Virus record (IMG/VR): IMGVR_UViG_3300046739_000271
Location: 1 to 47,573 of that record
Length of the DNA: 47,573 nucleotides
DNA from: a virus
Taxonomy: Duplodnaviria; Caudoviricetes
Reading direction: 5' to 3' (one strand)
Each line of letters begins with the position of its first letter. Position 1 is the first letter of the stretch. Positions 16,353-47,573 of the stretch are shown here, one piece after another. The notes under the pieces were generated by a model, which did not search any database, was not told the DNA's origin, and saw only the letters and a list, made by a program, of their open reading frames with translations. A program made the translations under genes and the position numbers.

Positions 16353-16451
16353 GCTGTCGGGGCGGGCACGGCGACCCGCGTGGATGATGTTCAGCCGGAA
16401 ACATTATTGCTCGGAAACCCGGCGAATCCGGTTCGACTCCGGACGACAGCT
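16353..16451 (+). ncRNA. tRNA-like RNA 1 (non-canonical cloverleaf)
   Basis: Acceptor GCTGTCG/CGACAGC; D-like GCGGG-CACGGCGA-CCCGC; 9-bp stem with 8-nt loop; variable arm; T arm TCCGG-TTCGACT-CCGGA. Confidence 0.8.
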
Positions 16452-22104: not shown

Positions 22105-22335
22105 CTACCCACCGCTACCCAAGGTCCCGCCAGGATCGGCAGGGCCCGGCGCGCGGAATCGCGGGAACCGGCGGCGAATCGGCTGGCGCTGTCCGACTTT
22201 TAATCCGTTGGTCGTGGGTTCGAGTCCCACCGCCTTCATTCGGATCAAGTCGTCACCCGCCCGCCACTTCGGATTCCGGCCGGCTCTCCGATTCCGCGCG
22301 TTGCCCTTCGGGCATGGGTAGCAATATTACCCATG
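22105..22335. promoter_or_regulatory. Putative attP arm sites and flanking inverted repeats
   Basis: YTACCCA at 22105, 22115, 22315 (inverted) and 22327; perfect 12-bp IR at 22150-22161/22289-22300. Confidence 0.6.
22195..22238 (+). other. attP core: 3' half of tRNA-Lys(UUU)
   Basis: GA-CTTTTAA-TCCGT anticodon loop, T arm GTGGG-TTCGAGT-CCCAC and 3' acceptor strand, with no 5' half; 95 bp before the integrase. Confidence 0.9.
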
Positions 22336-24269: not shown

Positions 24270-24297
24270 TTGACTTCAAATGGTACCACGGTACCAT
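24270..24297 (+). promoter_or_regulatory. Early rightward sigma70-type promoter overlapped by a palindromic operator
   Basis: TTGACT-16 nt-TACCAT; palindrome ATGGTACC-AC-GGTACCAT at 24280-24297. Confidence 0.7.
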
Positions 24298-24349
24298 ACG
24301 AATAACTGGATGAGTGGTCAAGACGGATACACGCTGAAAGGGAAAGACC

Positions 24350-26848: not shown

Positions 26849-26986
26849 CACAACGAACCTCCCGCCCCATCGCGAGTGCGTGGGCGTGGGGCCGGCCGCC
26901 AGAAGGGTGGCGGCCGGTGAAACAGAGGAGCGTGGCGGTGGACCTATTCCCGCCATTCGGCCGTGCGGAATGCCAACGCACGGCCG

Positions 26987-27171
26987 GCGGATGGAAGCGG
27001 ATAAGGTGATCCGCCACGCGCCCACCGTGGCCCATAGGTGGGAGTTGGGAAATCGACCGGGCTGACGAGCGCCGCCGACCTGACTTCCACACGCTCCCCG
27101 GCCGCCGAGTCCGCGGACGTTAGGCACTGGTCGGGAATGAGGGCGAGCCGGTTCAACTCCGGCCATCCGTG
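26987..27171 (+). ncRNA. tRNA-like RNA 2 (185 nt, large inserted domain)
   Basis: Acceptor GCGGATG/CATCCGT; D-like GCGGAT-AAGGTG-ATCCGC; T arm GCCGG-TTCAACT-CCGGC. Confidence 0.75.
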
Positions 27172-27188
27172 ATCGAAGGGTGTGGCTG

Positions 27189-27431
27189 ATGATTTGCTTC
27201 CACGGCACTAATCGGAAGAACGCCGAATCTATCCTGCAGGAAGGGTTCCGGGTCGGGACGTGGTTCGCAATTGAGAAAGAAAACGCAATCAAGTTCGGCG
27301 GTCCTTACGTATTTGCGGTCAAACTCGACAGGAACTTGTTGGGTCCCGGTGTCTCATGGCAGTTCCATACGCTCATACCGATCCCGGCGAGCGCAATTGT
27401 CTCTTGCCATGAGATCGCGGGGCGAAATTAA
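27189..27431 (+). CDS. Mini ADP-ribosyltransferase-fold protein (HGT motif)
   Basis: CFHGTNRKNAESILQEGF...TWFA....A..F; 80 aa. Confidence 0.65.
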   Translation: MICFHGTNRKNAESILQEGFRVGTWFAIEKENAIKFGGPYVFAVKLDRNLLGPGVSWQFHTLIPIPASAIVSCHEIAGRN

Positions 27432-27527
27432 TCAGTGTGAGACGTGCCGCGTGCGCGGTGCGGGGCCGTCGGCGTGCTTTAACCAAGTTTCTTGGTCGAA
27501 GGGCGAACGCCCGGCGGCTCATTTGAC

Positions 27528-27666
27528 GACGAACGCAGGCCGGCGGGTGGCCGGCTCACAGACCTGAGAAGCCGCTGTGTCTGAAGGTGCCCTTTGGGGC
27601 CGACGCAGGTACGCCGCATGGTCGCGGCTATGGATGCGGCCAGCCGTTCAACTCGGCCGTTCGTCA
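27528..27666 (+). ncRNA. tRNA-like RNA 3 (8/4 acceptor/T fold)
   Basis: GACGAACG/CGTTCGTC 8-bp stem; GGCCGGC-GGGTG-GCCGGCT arm; T arm GCCG-TTCAACT-CGGC. Confidence 0.75.
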
Positions 27667-27741: not shown

Positions 27742-27930
27742 ATGGACGCCGACACGCCGACGGTTCCCGACCTGGACCTTGACAGCGAATTGACCAAGGC
27801 TGCCACGAAGATGGCGGTTGACGCTTGGGATGAGATGTCAACGGACCTGCAACTCCGGATCACGTTCGACTGGCTGGTCGAGCGGTTTCGCAAGATTCTT
27901 CTCGCCCGCAGCAAGGAGAAGCGGTCGTGA
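27742..27930 (+). CDS. Hypothetical protein
   Basis: GGTGA SD; GTGA overlap with the next gene. Confidence 0.55.
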   Translation: MDADTPTVPDLDLDSELTKAATKMAVDAWDEMSTDLQLRITFDWLVERFRKILLARSKEKRS

Positions 27931-28628
27931 TTGGTGAAGGCGAGGCCCTAACTCGGTCTGTGCTGATGTCGTTGGAGGATGACGCCCCGCGGCTAGTGTA
28001 CGCCGACTGGCTGGATGAGCGGGCCGACTGCGAACTAGCCTCAAGCCTCCGGCTCGGCTCGCTGGTGACCCGGAAGCCGTCCGTTCGGGGCGACGGCGGC
28101 GACGGCGGCGGCGGCGGCGGCGGCGACGGCGGCGGCGGCGGCGGCGACGGCGACGGCGGCGACGGCGGCGGCGGCGGCGGCGGCTTCGGCGACGGCTACG
28201 GCGGCTTCGGCGGCGGCGGCGACGGCTACGGCGGCTTCGGCGGCGACGGCTACGGCGGCTTCGGCGGCGGCGGCTTCGGCGGCGACGGCGACGGCTCTAA
28301 TTCAGAGGTCACGTACATGGTCGATGGACTCTACATCATCACGCTTCCGGGCGGCTGGAATCCATATGTGGTGATCGGTTGGGTTGAAGTCGTGGGCCTC
28401 GAACTGACGGTGCGAGGCGGCCGATGTATCCGGCGATTCGGCGCGAACCAATCCCTCTCCGTCTTGGCCGCCAAGGGACCGGCCAGCGATACGCAACTCC
28501 TGCCACCGTCCGAAGAGGAGTTGTTCTGGCGTCCCAACGTCGGCCGCGCTATCGCGGCGAATCCAAAAGCGTGGAAGAAGGAATGCCCGCGGCCGAAGAC
28601 GCACGCGCTGGCCGCAATGGAGGATTAA
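27927..28628 (+). CDS. TIGR02996-like domain, Gly-rich repeat and DUF6948-like domain
   Basis: EDDAPRLVYADWLDE; GGDG/GYGGF tract; RCIRRFG....LSVLAAKGP..TQL. Confidence 0.75.
   Translation: MIGEGEALTRSVLMSLEDDAPRLVYADWLDERADCELASSLRLGSLVTRKPSVRGDGGDGGGGGGGDGGGGGGDGDGGDGGGGGGGFGDGYGGFGGGGDGYGGFGGDGYGGFGGGGFGGDGDGSNSEVTYMVDGLYIITLPGGWNPYVVIGWVEVVGLELTVRGGRCIRRFGANQSLSVLAAKGPASDTQLLPPSEEELFWRPNVGRAIAANPKAWKKECPRPKTHALAAMED
28089..28295 (+). repeat. GGC/GAC/TAC/TTC low-complexity coding repeat
   Basis: Runs of GGC codons punctuated by GAC, TAC and TTC. Confidence 0.95.
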
Positions 28629-28631
28629 ACC

Positions 28632-28835
28632 GTGCTAGTGTTATCCCGCAAGGAATCCGAGTCTCTGAAAATCGGCCCCGACATCACAGTGATGGTCGTC
28701 TCGGTCGAGCGGGGCAAGGTCCGGCTCGGTATTACCGCTCCCCGGAGCGTGCCGGTGTACCGGACCGAATTACTCGAAGTTGACCACCGGCATGACGAGC
28801 CGGTCCTGCCGCCGGAGTACGGGGGTGAGTCGTAG
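28632..28835 (+). CDS. csrA: Carbon storage regulator CsrA/RsmA homolog
   Basis: MLVLSRKESESLKIGPDITVMVVSVERGKVRLGITAPRSVPVYRTEL. Confidence 0.93.
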   Translation: MLVLSRKESESLKIGPDITVMVVSVERGKVRLGITAPRSVPVYRTELLEVDHRHDEPVLPPEYGGES

Positions 28836-29177: not shown

Positions 29178-29271
29178 CGGATGGGTGGCGAGTGGGTGAT
29201 ACCCCTGGCCGTGCCCGCAAGCACTCACCCTCATCAGGTGGGGAAACCGGGTTCGATTCCCGGCCGTTCCA
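29178..29271 (+). ncRNA. tRNA-like RNA 4 (CAT loop; 5' boundary uncertain)
   Basis: TCACC-CTCATCA-GGTGG arm, 5-nt variable region, T arm CCGGG-TTCGATT-CCCGG; acceptor pairing imperfect. Confidence 0.55.
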
Positions 29272-29275
29272 TTAG

Positions 29276-29515
29276 CCCGACCGCCCCCGCGTGAGGTCCT
29301 CCATGCTCAGCAACCCGCGACCCGGCCAACGCGTTCGCCTGCACTACGCCAACGCGCGGCGGTCGTTCTTCGTCTACTACGGACGGTCCGGAACCGTGGA
29401 GATCGCCGGGAAAGGCCGACCGCGGAACCATTTGGTCCGGCTCGATGACGGCACGCGGGTGATTGTCCCGGCCGGTAATCTGTATCCCGACTCCCCGACC
29501 GCCCCCGCGTGAGGT
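29276..29515 (+). repeat. 22-bp exact direct repeat (29276-29297, 29494-29515) flanking one gene
   Basis: CCCGACCGCCCCCGCGTGAGGT occurs twice, and each copy supplies a GAGGT SD. Confidence 0.9.
29303..29512 (+). CDS. Small SH3/KOW-like protein
   Basis: PGQRVRL...GRSGTVE...HLVRLDDGTRVIVP.GNL. Confidence 0.65.
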   Translation: MLSNPRPGQRVRLHYANARRSFFVYYGRSGTVEIAGKGRPRNHLVRLDDGTRVIVPAGNLYPDSPTAPA

Positions 29516-29520
29516 TCCCC

Positions 29521-29778
29521 ATGAGCAACTTTATCAGCCATCGCGAAGAAGAGTTGGGAGAGACGTGCGACCGGCTCCAAACCTGGCTCGACACCTGCCT
29601 CCCTCCGGAATCTGAGTTTTACGTCGAGTTGTGCCTGACGAGGTATACGTCGGCCATTCTGATCGGTGACATCCTAGTGTGGGAGTCGGAGAACAGCCCG
29701 TGCGAGCCCACCTTCGAGAACTGCCGCGATGTGTTCCGGGAGAGGATGCAGAACTTGGCGAAGTTGATGAATCAATAA
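29521..29778 (+). CDS. Hypothetical acidic protein
   Basis: GAGGT SD supplied by the repeat. Confidence 0.65.
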   Translation: MSNFISHREEELGETCDRLQTWLDTCLPPESEFYVELCLTRYTSAILIGDILVWESENSPCEPTFENCRDVFRERMQNLAKLMNQ

Positions 29779-30958: not shown

Positions 30959-33124
30959 ATGAGCTTGTCGCCGTGGACATTGAGAGCCAGGGGATCAACC
31001 GTCGGCATGGTGGCCGACGCATCGGAGGTCGGCCGCGCGTTTCGGCTATTCTGCGACGCCGATCACGCTTGCGAGGTCCGGGCGTTAACCACCGGTGCCC
31101 ACCGGAGCTTGGACGGCGGCGACGTTGACGGGCTGGTCGAGGCGGTCAGGGAACTTCCCTCGGGAATCGGAATCTACTTCGTCCTGAACCCGCTTCCGGT
31201 GGGGCTGGACAGTCCGGCGACGAATGCCGACGTGGTGTACCGGCGGTGGGTGTACATCGACGTCGACCCGCCCAAACCCGACGGGAAGGGCAAGTCGGCC
31301 ACCGACGCGGAGAAGGAATCCGCGGTGGCCCTCGGGCGGGAAGTGCAGGCTTACCTGGCCGCTCATGCGTGGCCGGCCCCGGTGGTGGTGGACTCGGGGA
31401 ACGGGGTGGCCCTGTACTACCTGGCCGAACTGCCCAACGACGAATTGGTCCGGGCGGCGTACTCCCGGCTGCTCGGCTTGCTGGGGAAGAAATTCGCCCA
31501 CGTCCCCGGCAGCATCGACCGGAGCGTGCATAGCGCGGCCCAGCTTGTGAAGCTGCCGGGGACGTGGGCACGGAAGGGGCCGGACGCCGACGATCGTCCT
31601 CACCGACCGTGCGAGATCACGTTCGTCCCGAAGAGTCTGGAGAAGCTGACCTTCGATGAGCTGAAGGTGGCCGGGGAAGGAGGGGACGAGAAGCCGGCGG
31701 CCGAAGGCCTGTCCAACGGGGCTAAACCGACGACGGAGGCGGCCCGACGATGCCTCGAAGCCGGGTGTGCCCGGATCGTCATGGCGGCGAAGGCCGACGA
31801 GGGGCGGAACAACGCTCTGAACGCCGCGGCCTTCGACATGGGCCGCAAGTTCATCAACGTCGGCTCGATCAGCCGCAAGGAAGTCGAGGAGCGGCTGTAT
31901 GAGGCGGCCTGCGAGTCCGGTCTGGACACGGATCACAACTGCGGGCCGGAGGGCATCCGCAAGACGATTGCCAGCGGTCTGGGTTCGGGCGAGAAGAAGA
32001 GGCCGGAGCCGATCCCGACCATCAAGGGGACGACGGCCGAGAGCAACGGGAAGCCGGGTCCGGACCGGCTGACCGTGAGCATGGCGAACGTCAAGCCTGC
32101 GGAGGTCGACTGGCTGGTGAGGAACCGGATTCCGAAGCGGTTCATCACGGTTTTTTCGGGGCGGACGGGGATCGGCAAGTCCTATGTCGCCCTAGATCTG
32201 GTGGCCCGGATCTCACGCGGCGGGGAGGTTCCGCTGGCCGGGGGTGAGAGATTCACGGCAGGCGGTACCCTCGTGCTGAGTGAAGACCCGCACGAGTACG
32301 TAATCGCTCCGCGGCTGATTGACGCCGGGGCCGAGTTGGAACGAATTCACGCCATGACCTGGGAAGCGATGGGGAAGTACCAGCTCGGGGACACGGAGAT
32401 GCTGTCGCGGGCGTGTGCGGAGGTTCCGGGCGGGGTCTCCGTGGTGATGATCGACCCGCCCACGAACTTTCTGGAGGGCACCGACGAGCACAAGAACGCC
32501 GAGGTCAGGCAACTGGTAATGAAGGTCGTTGAGTGGGCGATCGGTCGTGACGTGGCCGTGCTGTTCATCCTGCACGTGAACAAGAACGTGAAGGGCGTGG
32601 AGGCCTTGAACCGGGTGATGGGGTCGGTGGCCTGGGTGACGACGGCACGGATCGCCCATGCCTTCTGCGCCGACCCGGACGACCGGTCGCGGTCGCTCTG
32701 GGTGCCGATGAAAAACAACCTCGGGCCGCTGGAGAAGGCGATCGCGTTCCGGATCGTGAAGGACGGCGGCACGACGACGGTGCGGTGGGAGGGGGAGATC
32801 GACACCACGGCTGACGACGCCATGGGTCGGGAGCCCGACCGGAAGAGGCGTGACATCCGGGCCGGTGAATGGCTGGTGGATCAATTCCGAACACGCCTGG
32901 AATGGGAGTCGGGGGACCTATTCGAACGGGCCCGGCAGGACGGGGTGAGCCGGAACGCCATCTTCGAGGCGAAGGAGTCGCTCAAGCTGCCGCGGGCCCG
33001 GCGGCAGGTCAAGGAGAATGGTGAAGAAGTGTACATATGGTGGGTATCCGTGGACTGGCTGGCCGAGCACTCCAAGCCGCCCCGGTGTCCCACGACTGGT
33101 ACATCCGGGACACCGGGACAGTAG
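30959..33124 (+). CDS. Primase (AEP-like)-helicase (AAA_25/RepA-like) fusion
   Basis: YIDVD, VDSGNG, KLPGT, GRNNAL; Walker A GRTGIGKS, VMIDP, ILHVNK, KNNLG. Confidence 0.85.
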   Translation: MSLSPWTLRARGSTVGMVADASEVGRAFRLFCDADHACEVRALTTGAHRSLDGGDVDGLVEAVRELPSGIGIYFVLNPLPVGLDSPATNADVVYRRWVYIDVDPPKPDGKGKSATDAEKESAVALGREVQAYLAAHAWPAPVVVDSGNGVALYYLAELPNDELVRAAYSRLLGLLGKKFAHVPGSIDRSVHSAAQLVKLPGTWARKGPDADDRPHRPCEITFVPKSLEKLTFDELKVAGEGGDEKPAAEGLSNGAKPTTEAARRCLEAGCARIVMAAKADEGRNNALNAAAFDMGRKFINVGSISRKEVEERLYEAACESGLDTDHNCGPEGIRKTIASGLGSGEKKRPEPIPTIKGTTAESNGKPGPDRLTVSMANVKPAEVDWLVRNRIPKRFITVFSGRTGIGKSYVALDLVARISRGGEVPLAGGERFTAGGTLVLSEDPHEYVIAPRLIDAGAELERIHAMTWEAMGKYQLGDTEMLSRACAEVPGGVSVVMIDPPTNFLEGTDEHKNAEVRQLVMKVVEWAIGRDVAVLFILHVNKNVKGVEALNRVMGSVAWVTTARIAHAFCADPDDRSRSLWVPMKNNLGPLEKAIAFRIVKDGGTTTVRWEGEIDTTADDAMGREPDRKRRDIRAGEWLVDQFRTRLEWESGDLFERARQDGVSRNAIFEAKESLKLPRARRQVKENGEEVYIWWVSVDWLAEHSKPPRCPTTGTSGTPGQ

Positions 33125-33294
33125 TGCAGGAAGTCTATACGGGATATGGACTTCCCTACTGTCCCGGTGGTCGGGACAGTAGACCGACCGGGACAGCAGC
33201 TATCGTCCTGGTGTCCCGGTCAGTCTGAAAACCGGGACAGTAGGGAAGTCCTTATGTGGTATGAGTTTCCAGCACTACTGTCCCGGTGTCCCGG
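33105..33294. repeat. Putative replication origin: nested inverted repeats with CCGGGACA iterons
   Basis: IR pairs 33105-33140/33259-33294, 33148-33168/33231-33251 (perfect 21 bp) and 33181-33195/33212-33226. Confidence 0.8.
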
Positions 33295-36903: not shown

Positions 36904-36932
36904 GCTGACCGCGGGCCGGCCAACGGGAGGGG

Positions 36933-37706
36933 ATGACGATGGACGACGCAACGCGGGCGGACTGGCTTCAGGCCGCCATCGAAGTAACCGAGACCAAGAG
37001 CGACCCGCTAATTGAGGACGCTTACGACGCAGCCCGGGTGAGTGTGCCCCGCAACGCCTGGCTGTCTGCCGTGGCGACGGCGTGCTTCTCGCGTGCCTAC
37101 CTCGCCGCCCACGCCACGCCCCCGCCGGCCGGCCAACGGGAGGGGATGACGATGGACGACGCGGAGAAAAGGGCCATCGATGCCGTGCGTGTCTACCTTC
37201 GTTTCGTGGAGTCCAAGAGGGACGTTCCCGGAGCGGTTATATGTGATTTCGTTCAACACCGGAATGCCGCACTGGCTGCCTTGCTGAAAGAGTATGACGC
37301 CGCCACGCCCCCGCCGGCCGACGACGAGGCGGGGCGGCTGCGAGAGTTGCTTCGGAGGATGGTGGAGCGGTATGCTCCCCACTCCAGCTCGTGCGGCAGG
37401 TTCGACGAGTCCGGCAAGGTCGTCATAACAGAGGCGAGTTGCCAGTGCGATCTGCTGGCGAAAGAAGCACGCGCCGCCCTCGCCCACCGACCGGGCGACA
37501 CCCAGGCCGCCGACGAGGCGGGGCGGCTGCGGGCGGCCCTGCTGGTGTACCGAACGGCTCAGCGACGAATGCTGGAACGTTGGGCCGATGGTGACGCTGC
37601 GGTCCGTCAAGAATTGTGGCGAGACTTACACGCCTGCGAAGAGGTCGCAGACGAAGCCCTCGCCCACCGACCGGGCGGCGGGCTCGCCGGGAGGGACGCG
37701 ACGTGA
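36933..37706 (+). CDS. Mosaic protein of four modules joined by repeated linkers
   Basis: MTMDDA x2, ATPPPA x2, DEAGRLR x2 and ALAHRPG x2, each exact at DNA level. Confidence 0.75.
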   Translation: MTMDDATRADWLQAAIEVTETKSDPLIEDAYDAARVSVPRNAWLSAVATACFSRAYLAAHATPPPAGQREGMTMDDAEKRAIDAVRVYLRFVESKRDVPGAVICDFVQHRNAALAALLKEYDAATPPPADDEAGRLRELLRRMVERYAPHSSSCGRFDESGKVVITEASCQCDLLAKEARAALAHRPGDTQAADEAGRLRAALLVYRTAQRRMLERWADGDAAVRQELWRDLHACEEVADEALAHRPGGGLAGRDAT

Positions 37707-38879: not shown

Positions 38880-38951
38880 GGTGGGGGAGGGGAATCGAAC
38901 CCCCCTCAGTCGTTTACAAAACGACTGCTTTAGCCGCTAAGCTACCCCCAC
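38880..38951 (-). tRNA. tRNA-Thr(TGT), no encoded CCA
   Basis: Full cloverleaf: GTGGGGG/CCCCCAC, GCTT/AAGC, GTCGT-TTTGTAA-ACGAC, GGGGG-TTCGATT-CCCCT. Confidence 0.9.
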
Positions 38952-39390
38952 CATGCGGCCGCTCACGTCGCCGGCCCGGCGGTGCTAACGACACCGCCGG
39001 AACCGGCGACACTCAGGCTAATGTCGCGTGCTTCATCGCACGCCCTCCAGTCTGAGAATGCTCCGCCTCTCCGGTCCCAGGGCGTCGAAACTCGGGAACC
39101 TTCGGGTGCGGATCGGTAGGGTTTGGGTGACTGGCCCCGCGCCAGTCACCCTTGCCCGAAATCAGGTCTATAGTCGCGGGAGACATGGGTTCCTCCCGGA
39201 CGTGTTTCTCTTCCGTCACGACTTCGCGGCCGCTAGCATTTCGCGCCACCCTTTTTTGAGCTTCCAAAACCCCAGCCGAAATTGGGAGGGATTAACTGGC
39301 CCATGCTGTGCGAGAAAGGCCGTGAGGTCCTGGCCGGCGGGCGGGGCGGGGATATGCCGTGATGGCCCCAATTCCTTGTACAATCCTCGC

Positions 39391-39969
39391 ATGGCCGGCA
39401 AACGGCCCACACGCCCCATGACCGAGGCCCACGACATCGCCAAGGCTCAGGCCGGCGACCGAGACGCCGCCGGCCGCGTCCTCGCCGCCCACCGCGGCCT
39501 CATCGTCCAGTGGTGCAACGACCTCGTCCAGCCCGGCCTCGAACTTGATGACATGATCCAGGAGGCCCATCTCGCCGGCCTCTCCGCCATCCGCTGGTTC
39601 CGACCACGACGCGGCTTCCAGTTCAGCACGTACTTGAAACGCTGCGTGTGTAACCGGCTGGCGACGTGGCGACAGGACCGCCGCCAGCGACCGACCGCCC
39701 AGGAGCCCGAAGAGGATGGCACGCTCGAACTGCTCGCCGAGCTCGACAGCCACGACAATTTCGTCGTCATGCAGATGGTCCGCAGCTTAAGCAAGCGGGA
39801 CCGAACCGTCCTCGATCTGCGCTTCGGGCTCAGCGGCGGTGGACCGCTGGGCCCCGTCACCGTCGCCCGTCGGCTGGGCATCTCCGAGGCCCACGTCCGC
39901 CAGATCGAAGTCGAGGCCAAGGCCGACCTGCGCTTCATGGCGGGGCCGGGGTACGACCCGGCGGGCTAA
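39391..39969 (+). CDS. Sigma-70 family RNA polymerase sigma factor (regions 2 and 4)
   Basis: DDMIQEA..A...AI..F.P.RGFQFSTY; LSKRDRTVLDLRFGL...VARRLGISEAHVRQIE; TACAAT 6 nt upstream of the ATG. Confidence 0.9.
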   Translation: MAGKRPTRPMTEAHDIAKAQAGDRDAAGRVLAAHRGLIVQWCNDLVQPGLELDDMIQEAHLAGLSAIRWFRPRRGFQFSTYLKRCVCNRLATWRQDRRQRPTAQEPEEDGTLELLAELDSHDNFVVMQMVRSLSKRDRTVLDLRFGLSGGGPLGPVTVARRLGISEAHVRQIEVEAKADLRFMAGPGYDPAG

Positions 39970-47188: not shown

Positions 47189-47573
47189 GTGGCCGTCTTC
47201 GGGCGCCGACAACCGCACGCGCCGCTGATCCTGCGCGGGCAGTTGCCAGCCCAGCCGGCCATCGGGCTCGTTCAGGTTGTCGGCCAGAAGACAAGTCAAC
47301 TCGCGGCCGACCGCTACTTCCGCCGGTCCTTTCCACCGAAGATTATTCGCGGTGGTGGCCCTCCCGCGACGGCACAATCGGTCGTCATCCAGCGTCAGGC
47401 CCAGCCGGCAGCCCGGCGGCCACATGGCCTGGCCCTCATCCTCCGCGGCGGCCCCCGGCCCTCCGTCGCTCAATCCCTGATCGTCCAGCGAATAGCGCAA
47501 CCAGCCGCCCGGCGTCCCCACGGACTTGCGGTCACGATCCGGGGTGGCGGGCCGCCAGCCGTTGGCGAGTCGC
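47189..47573 (+). CDS. 5' part of junction-spanning Arg/Pro-rich repeat protein (continues to 741; about 332 aa)
   Basis: GTG at 47189 after a GAGGAG SD. The frame (MAVFGRRQPHAPLILRG...) is open and in phase with frame 1 at position 1. Confidence 0.8.
   Translation, partial: MAVFGRRQPHAPLILRGQLPAQPAIGLVQVVGQKTSQLAADRYFRRSFPPKIIRGGGPPATAQSVVIQRQAQPAARRPHGLALILRGGPRPSVAQSLIVQRIAQPAARRPHGLAVTIRGGGPPAVGES
47447..47573. repeat. 127-bp terminal overlap, identical to 1-127
   Basis: Exact match to the window start. Confidence 0.97.

Follow-up and report, generated by a model that had tools for sequence, protein, structure and literature searches.

The closest described relatives of the small phage protein considered here are the tRNA-repair enzymes Tpt1/KptA (PF01885). 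In Tpt1, residues 1-85 form an RNA lobe which carries Arg18, His19 and Arg68 of a four-residue set (Arg-His-Arg-Arg, the tetrad), the fourth residue being Arg121 (PMC6333775, available text). According to the accessible part of another paper (PMC8120803), classic ADP-ribosyltransferases (ARTs) that lose the catalytic Glu suffer a several hundred-fold drop in activity, ARTs with altered triads such as Arr, AcrIF11 and Tpt1/KptA are nonetheless active, and KptA modifies 5'-phosphorylated RNA in vitro. As for RNAs, oversized tRNA-shaped phage RNAs are already known as a kind, with T4 RNA C and the allo-tRNAs as examples. Allo-tRNAs with an 8/4 acceptor/T branch and five-stem irregular tRNAs, from soil, have been reported near toxin-antitoxin genes (Mukai et al. 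2017, PMC5389517; also PMC7609411 and PMC10690425, each in its available text). T4 RNA C (rnaC, species 1 RNA, 139 nt) is annotated as a small stable RNA of the tRNA region, and the available text of PMC3014915 gives it no known role. In plant mitochondria, tRNA-like folds between genes, called t-elements, set mRNA ends (PMC1920247, available text). Here we describe a phage locus in which a gene for a minimal ART-fold protein lies between two oversized tRNA-like RNAs.

The window, that is the whole stretch of 47,573 nucleotides that was analysed, makes up a complete contig whose ends share a repeat of 127 nt, which argues for a circular genome of 47.4 kb. It encodes a terminase, portal, integrase, excisionase-like HTH protein, primase-helicase-like AAA protein, methyltransferases, sigma factor and CsrA, and this gene set is that of a temperate phage. 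Its proteins contain DUF1580 and TIGR02996 domains, which we take to be markers of a Gemmataceae-type Planctomycetota host, so that the host is probably a planctomycete of this type. The 24 sequencing runs listed for the window come from DNA of soil or rhizosphere samples, and 15 of them may be its source. In the contigs of eight runs that share the phage in part, its pieces occur without substitutions or joints, and thus no variant lacking the ART gene was seen among them. The ART locus (Table 1) sits within a run of small plus-strand genes that follows a divergent promoter-like pair at 24270-24321, which consists of consensus matches alone (two found versus 1.3 expected). No PHROG match was obtained for any of the nine small ORFs that overlap the RNA regions. 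The downstream TIGR02996 gene continues after this domain with a long linker of low complexity (Gly/Asp/Phe/Tyr), ends in an uncharacterised C-terminal domain, and is followed by the phage CsrA gene (28632-28835).

Table 1. Features of the ART locus and further tRNA-like elements of the phage, with positions in the window
Feature	Position	Strand	Remarks
RNA1, tRNA-like, 98 nt	16353..16450	+	not called by ARAGORN or Rfam
Upstream neighbour, Cys-rich protein, 134 aa	26444..26848	+	phrog_33336, no assigned function; served as control gene
Non-coding hairpin-rich leader between Cys-rich gene and RNA2	26860..26985	+	predicted fold
RNA2, tRNA-like, 184 nt	26987..27170	+	ends 18 nt before ART ATG; discriminator G27171; CCA not encoded
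Stand-alone ART-fold protein, 80 aa, like the Tpt1/KptA NAD+ lobe	27189..27431	+	His5, Trp25, Phe36, Gln58
Two predicted hairpins between ART stop codon and RNA3	27443..27520	+	predicted fold; would form the 3' end of the excised mRNA
RNA3, tRNA-like, 138 nt	27528..27665	+	starts 96 nt after ART stop; discriminator A27666; CCA not encoded
Downstream TIGR02996-domain gene	27927..28628	+	43.7 bits, cut-off 29.05
RNA4, five-armed, tRNA-like	29179..29271	+	ARAGORN: tRNA-Ala(TGC)

The original prediction had described an ORF of 80 codons with the motifs FHGT, SILQEGF and WFA closely behind one tRNA-like RNA and ahead of another, and this arrangement was confirmed on both sides. The ORF would encode 83 residues if translation began at an in-frame GTG at 27180, and an SD-like GAAGGG lies at 27175-27180, 8 nt before the ATG. 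The GC content of the gene is 0.53, compared with 0.59-0.66 for five neighbours, as expected of a later insertion.

For the fold we used an alignment-based AF2 model (pLDDT 92.2, pTM 0.81) instead of the poor model obtained from the single sequence (pLDDT 53.6). All nine PDB matches found by Foldseek at E<=0.001 were Tpt1/KptA. The best match of an exhaustive structural aligner (VIA) was KptA 9ld3 (Z 10.5, rmsd 2.0 A, 73 aligned residues), where model residues 1-74 fall on chain residues 94-180, the C-terminal NAD+ lobe. TreX (Z 8.5) and mouse Tpt1 (Z 8.2) came next, TreTu scored Z 6.8, and the remainder of the list were essentially ART folds. A profile match to Tpt1 7kw8 (E 0.0023) was also obtained, as were TM values of 0.75 to PARP and Tpt1 clusters in the Atlas, under its naming bar, and BFVD contains many uncharacterised phage proteins of about 100 aa with the same fold (TM up to 0.84). 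Thus the predicted proximity to Tpt1/KptA, proposed earlier from motifs, is borne out at the level of the model, which indicates that the protein has the split beta-sheet, NAD+-binding ART fold and corresponds to a lone Tpt1 NAD+ lobe.

The H-Y-E clade, to which the gene had also been assigned, fits in fold but not at the catalytic Glu. Among 178 aligned domains of the family, the strand-1 His is present in 99% (His5), and the strand-2 Tyr position holds Tyr in 58% and Trp in 41%, the latter being found in this phage. At the position of the catalytic Glu, as set by motif order and by strand E58-61, 98% of the members have Gln and 1% have Glu. Because of this Gln, the protein is not a strict H-Y-E enzyme, and because the Tpt1 RNA lobe is absent, it is not a Tpt1 either. 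The lobe would be the home of three of the four tetrad residues, and the sequence upstream of the 80-aa ORF is non-coding RNA; the motif with the fourth residue (RxxVHLS) falls in a gap of the alignment. With Tpt1/KptA (9ld3, 8tg3, 7kw8) the protein shares the NAD+-lobe fold, the HGT...I..EG motif and the absence of the catalytic Glu, whereas it differs from them in having Tyr/Trp for the second His, a conserved WQF motif and half their length. Likewise, it resembles the H-Y-E (diphtheria-toxin/PARP-like) ARTs, Arr, AcrIF11, TreTu/TreX and DarT in fold and first His (Z 5-8.5), but differs from them in its Gln at the Glu position and in a length of 72-80 aa in its shortest relatives. The protein presumably cannot carry out the two-step 2'-phosphate removal of Tpt1.

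Its relatives form a large and conserved family with a His-Tyr/Trp-Gln site for which there is no curated model. A word-based search found one relative (P0003, 63% identity, the closest homologue), a profile search found 31 family proteins, and a full HMMER scan found 533 clusters (at 50% identity) at E<=1e-3, or 285 at 1e-10. Conservation was counted on the 178 aligned domains of 177 family proteins (median length 106 aa), the scan giving individual entries for the best 150 of the 533 clusters: besides the residues above, Gly6, Thr7 and Gly37/Gly38 are conserved in 99%, Ile15, Gly19 and Phe20 in 98-99%, and Trp57 in 95%. The protein reached no curated family at cut-off in Pfam, PHROG, NCBIfam or PADLOC, its PARP match in Pfam (E 0.003) staying below the cut-off, and neither PADLOC nor PTS_2-RNA matched any of the 31 core members. 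In 301 genomes from the order of a TIGR02996-positive genome, the ART profile had no match. Fusion of the ART domain to GIY-YIG, HNH or DUF551 was seen in four of the 30 long members scanned and in two further loci (L015 and L016). Considering the homologue loci free of such RNAs, the fusions and the low GC, the gene shows the pattern of a mobile phage accessory module. In the searched literature, most of it outside subscription journals, we found no paper on this family or on an arrangement of an ART gene with tRNA-like RNAs.

Several family members are of interest in themselves. The GIY-YIG nuclease is fused to the mini-ART in L015 (574-1044), L016 (1332-1814), P0036 and P0114, and P0036 has two tandem mini-ART copies behind an N-terminal region with an HEXXH-like motif. 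A separate family in planctomycete-like genomes (L020:558-1622, L022 and L026) combines an HGT-type N-terminal domain with a helical repeat-like C-terminus.

The two RNAs that flank the gene are likely to be non-decoding tRNA-shaped RNAs, as judged from predicted folds. Both have the acceptor stem and the T-arm with a TTCRA loop of a canonical tRNA, the T-loop being TTCAACT in each. RNA2 folds with a 7-bp acceptor, a 6-bp D-like stem whose loop contains GGTG, three inner hairpins and a 5-bp T-arm; its acceptor/T branch can be drawn as 7/5 or 8/4, the eighth pair having a probability of 0.42. RNA3 has an 8/4 branch in which all eight acceptor pairs are Watson-Crick, a 6-7-bp D-like stem with a GGGTG loop, and three inner hairpins with an uncertain middle fold. 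In these single-sequence folds neither RNA has a 5-bp anticodon stem with a 7-nt loop. Both were missed by ARAGORN and Rfam, and the threshold of the canonical tRNA cloverleaf (RF00005) was not reached. In all, the phage has four irregular tRNA-like elements, of which two lie a long way from any ART gene. RNA1 has a perfect 7/5 top half, a 9-bp extended stem at the anticodon position with an 8-nt loop, and a variable arm, and RNA4, by eye, has an additional hairpin and, adjoining its T-arm, an arm with a CAT loop; its first pair is a C-C mismatch, and a G3-U70-type pair is present as well.

The thermodynamic evidence for these folds is mixed. The folding z-scores of RNA2 (-1.16) and RNA3 (-1.37) are not significant. 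The tRNA-like fold of RNA2 is the MFE structure in isolation, its acceptor being absent from the equilibrium folds of longer stretches, and the T-arm of RNA3 forms only in a structure that is 1.2 kcal/mol less stable than the MFE (its T-stem pairs have a probability of 0.02). With descriptors that were chosen post hoc, the window contains six T-arm motifs versus a mean of 0.6 (maximum 4) in 200 dinucleotide shuffles, and four T-arms with a closing acceptor versus 0.04 (maximum 1). A single-sequence model of RNA2 ranked RNA3 (25.3 bits) and RNA1 (19.0 bits) highest among 13 non-self matches, the next scoring 15.8 bits and the region of the true tRNA-Thr 11.6 bits.

Compared with the allo-tRNAs and five-stem irregular tRNAs, RNA3 and possibly RNA2 share the 8/4, 12-bp acceptor/T branch, and both share extra stems, an origin in soil and a proposed non-coding role beside conflict genes (PMC5389517, available text). 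They are far longer, with six-way junctions and no recognisable anticodon arm, and they come from a likely planctomycete phage, not from Acidobacteria, which sets them apart from the RNAs in the available text of that paper. The Sec-like body of allo-tRNAs, with an anticodon arm and a single long variable arm, is absent in RNA2 and RNA3, which have three inner hairpins. T4 RNA C, when folded here, gave the same plan, with a terminal stem, long inner hairpins and a canonical T-arm, although the likeness is one of predicted architecture only: T4 RNA C (L176) was not matched by the models of RNA2 and RNA3 (R1 and R2), and it is part of a tRNA cluster instead of bordering an ART gene. In their position between genes the two RNAs also resemble t-elements and the tRNA punctuation of polycistronic transcripts, a role which is here predicted.

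Relatives of the two RNAs were sought in several collections. Neither blastn against 50,697 phage records nor the single-sequence covariance models, run on 150 genomes each (sets with no positive control genome), gave a homologue. Six weak DNA matches in 401 Planctomycetota genomes and three in 251 genomes from the order of the TIGR02996-positive genome were attributed to chance, none having a T-arm with an acceptor. The pattern of the RNA2 T-arm with its 3' acceptor occurs at eight places in IMG/VR, six of which are within tRNA genes called by ARAGORN (L002-L007) and two of which are not called (L001 and L008). The RNA3 T-arm has at least 111 distinct matches there; among those listed, five have an acceptor partner and none is RNA3-like, three being tRNA-sized, one 103 nt long and one 300 nt long in coding-like sequence. 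A pre-T motif shared by the two RNAs had 42 matches, three of them with a T-stem and none with an acceptor, and an R1 match at L174 (25.4 bits) was rejected, lying inside an ORF and lacking the T-loop. Readings of RNA2 and RNA3 as tmRNA, Y RNA or ribozyme were dismissed on the lack of any Rfam match at E<=10 over either RNA; a hairpin-ribozyme match upstream of them (E 3) was judged to be chance. Since no RNA homologue was found, each fold rests on one sequence, without covariation support. The searches also brought up tRNA-like genes of viruses for which an 8/4 acceptor/T branch is a possible drawing, namely L132 (103 nt), L082 (94 nt), L105 (78 nt) and L055 (82 nt).

Whether protein and RNAs travel together was judged on 16 homologue loci from metagenomes and IMG/VR, which fall into 11 lineages (L009-12, L013, L014, L015/16, L017, L018/19, L045, L046, L047, L048 and L178); P0003 is outside this set. 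Left out were L020-L022 and L026, where the match is limited to an HGT stretch at the N-terminus of an unrelated and longer protein, L023 (30% identity at E 3e-4), L024-L025, which matched in the wrong frame, L027, whose match covers 29 residues, and L177, from the same contig as L045. None of the 16 loci has an acceptor-closed tRNA-like element on the same strand within 400 nt upstream, and none was matched by R1 or R2 at E<=1. A T-loop-like motif 124 nt upstream in L009-L012 was discarded, as it lies inside a long open frame and has no acceptor partner; in L010 there is an uncalled T-arm 349 nt downstream of the homologue. The co-occurrence across lineages expected of a conserved RNA-protein module or a type III toxin-antitoxin system is therefore not seen, and the module proposed in the original prediction, which had itself named homologues without structured RNAs as a refutation, finds little support. 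Because the relatives do without such RNAs, the ART gene and its flanking RNAs are likely neighbours and not one dedicated machine, and their pairing looks incidental. One weak point in favour of a link comes from tRNA genes that ARAGORN called in the retrieved flanks, which reach up to ~4 kb: they occur at eight of the 16 loci, or five of the 11 lineages, the call in L048 being doubtful. For the upstream Cys-rich gene none of 11 loci, all of them longer, has such a call, and for TIGR02996 two of five do, in a control that is small and unmatched for phage genome size. A tRNA-related role may be behind this, or tRNA regions may simply collect accessory genes.

The reading we lean towards, with somewhat better than even confidence, is that the ART effector and the two tRNA-shaped RNAs are separate parts, and that the protein acts alone, probably without need of the RNAs. 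RNase P and RNase Z read the acceptor/T-arm top half of tRNA. By this half RNA2 and RNA3 would be recognised in a rightward early transcript, which host RNase P would cut at their 5' ends and RNase Z or 3' trimming would cut after their discriminators. Cuts at 26987, 27171, 27528 and 27666 would give two stable non-decoding RNAs and a monocistronic mRNA of about 356 nt (27172-27527), which would keep a 17-nt leader with the SD site and end in the predicted hairpins. Excision of the ART mRNA by host tRNA processing, which had been offered earlier as the plainer alternative, is likely in that it fits the anatomy of the locus. The gene itself would be a mobile accessory gene, found in other phages alone or fused to GIY-YIG, HNH or DUF551, and its product an NAD+-using early effector. 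The protein likely binds NAD+ and likely ADP-ribosylates a host target. Considering the Gln in place of the catalytic Glu and the missing RNA lobe, the likeliest chemistry would be a single transfer of mono-ADP-ribose to an acceptor that does not depend on Glu. This might be a terminal phosphate of nucleic acid, as for KptA, a first guess based on the likeness to KptA and the missing Glu.

A different view, which we consider unlikely, is that the mini-ART family has tRNA or tRNA-like RNA as its target and might, for instance, cap phosphate ends with ADP-ribose, with RNA2 and RNA3 as substrate, decoy or stand-in for the RNA lobe of a functional module. Its closest solved fold is indeed a tRNA-repair enzyme, the gene is tightly flanked by RNAs in this phage, tRNA genes are near it in the five lineages mentioned above, and L010-L012 each have a tRNA-Met, encoded on the opposite strand, some 140 nt beyond the ART stop. 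Nevertheless, the other six lineages have no tRNA in their flanks and none has the sandwich, at several of the loci with tRNAs these form clusters at a distance of 1-3 kb, in one case on a 267-kb contig, the control genes are not matched for phage size, and the Tpt1 tetrad is missing. A bolder form of this idea, which we consider improbable, is that a widespread phage family shed the RNA-binding lobe of Tpt1 and, reduced to a minimal NAD+ lobe, works on tRNA-shaped RNA by attaching ADP-ribose to the ends of tRNAs from host or phage, and that here two expanded tRNA mimics, processed from the same transcript, take the part of RNA lobe, of substrate or of inhibitor for it, making a ribonucleoprotein ADP-ribosyltransferase. 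Still less can be said for an addiction or defence cassette of the prophage, of type III- or type I-like design, in which the protein would be a toxin and the flanking RNAs an RNA antitoxin or antisense regulator. Small ART toxins do come next in the fold list (TreX and TreTu), and one report places irregular allo-tRNAs close to toxin-antitoxin systems (PMC5389517, available text), but the homologues lack the RNAs, PADLOC recognised no core member, and RNA2 and RNA3, which do not form tandem repeats, have at most 7 and 6 nt of complementarity to the ART mRNA.

The substitution of the catalytic Glu also bears on whether the protein is a transferase at all. It may be just an NADase, or it may bind NAD+ or ADP-ribose without catalysis, in the role of a sensor, a sponge or a decoy; the near-universal Gln, the activity loss of classic ARTs without that Glu (PMC8120803, available text) and the little acceptor surface left by 72-80 aa would agree with this. 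We regard it as a slim possibility, given that the full H-Y-E set is not needed for activity in Tpt1/KptA, Arr and AcrIF11 (same text) and that a near-invariant pocket, Gln included, fits a chemical role. Finally, RNA2 and RNA3 might be functionless, either what is left of decayed tRNAs or GC-rich runs of hairpins that arose by chance, in line with the lack of homologues found, the z-scores and the unencoded CCA. This is quite improbable in view of the shuffle statistics, the intact acceptor, T and D-like stems, the placing of RNA3 and RNA1 above the true tRNA-Thr region by the RNA2 model, and the fact that a compact operon retains ~600 nt of non-coding DNA.

The mini-ART, found in hundreds of clusters, is an ART fold cut to 72-80 residues, about half the size of Arr, which is itself unusually small according to the available text of a review. 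With it, the smallest working ART core and Glu-independent chemistry can easily be put to the test, and it is a candidate phage effector. RNA2 and RNA3 add two cases to the oversized tRNA-shaped phage RNAs, whose role has been open since T4 RNA C, and they give a clear prediction, namely mRNA excision by tRNA-processing enzymes.

Other parts of the window also carry repeats and tRNA-related sequences. A stretch resembling tRNA-Lys(TTT) but broken in its acceptor stem (22164-22238, plus strand) lies just upstream of the integrase gene and is probably attP, and an imperfect inverted repeat of 190 nt (33105-33294) directly after the primase-helicase-like gene is a possible origin. Near the contig start there is a ~280-nt duplication (148-635 and 47378-47421, 71% identical), a 41-nt direct repeat pair is found at 36909-37162 (98% identical), and a direct repeat of ~39 nt (29276-29314 and 29494-29529) has its first copy just after RNA4. 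The phage sigma-70-family factor (39028-39969, plus strand) adjoins a canonical tRNA-Thr(TGT) gene (38880-38951, minus strand).
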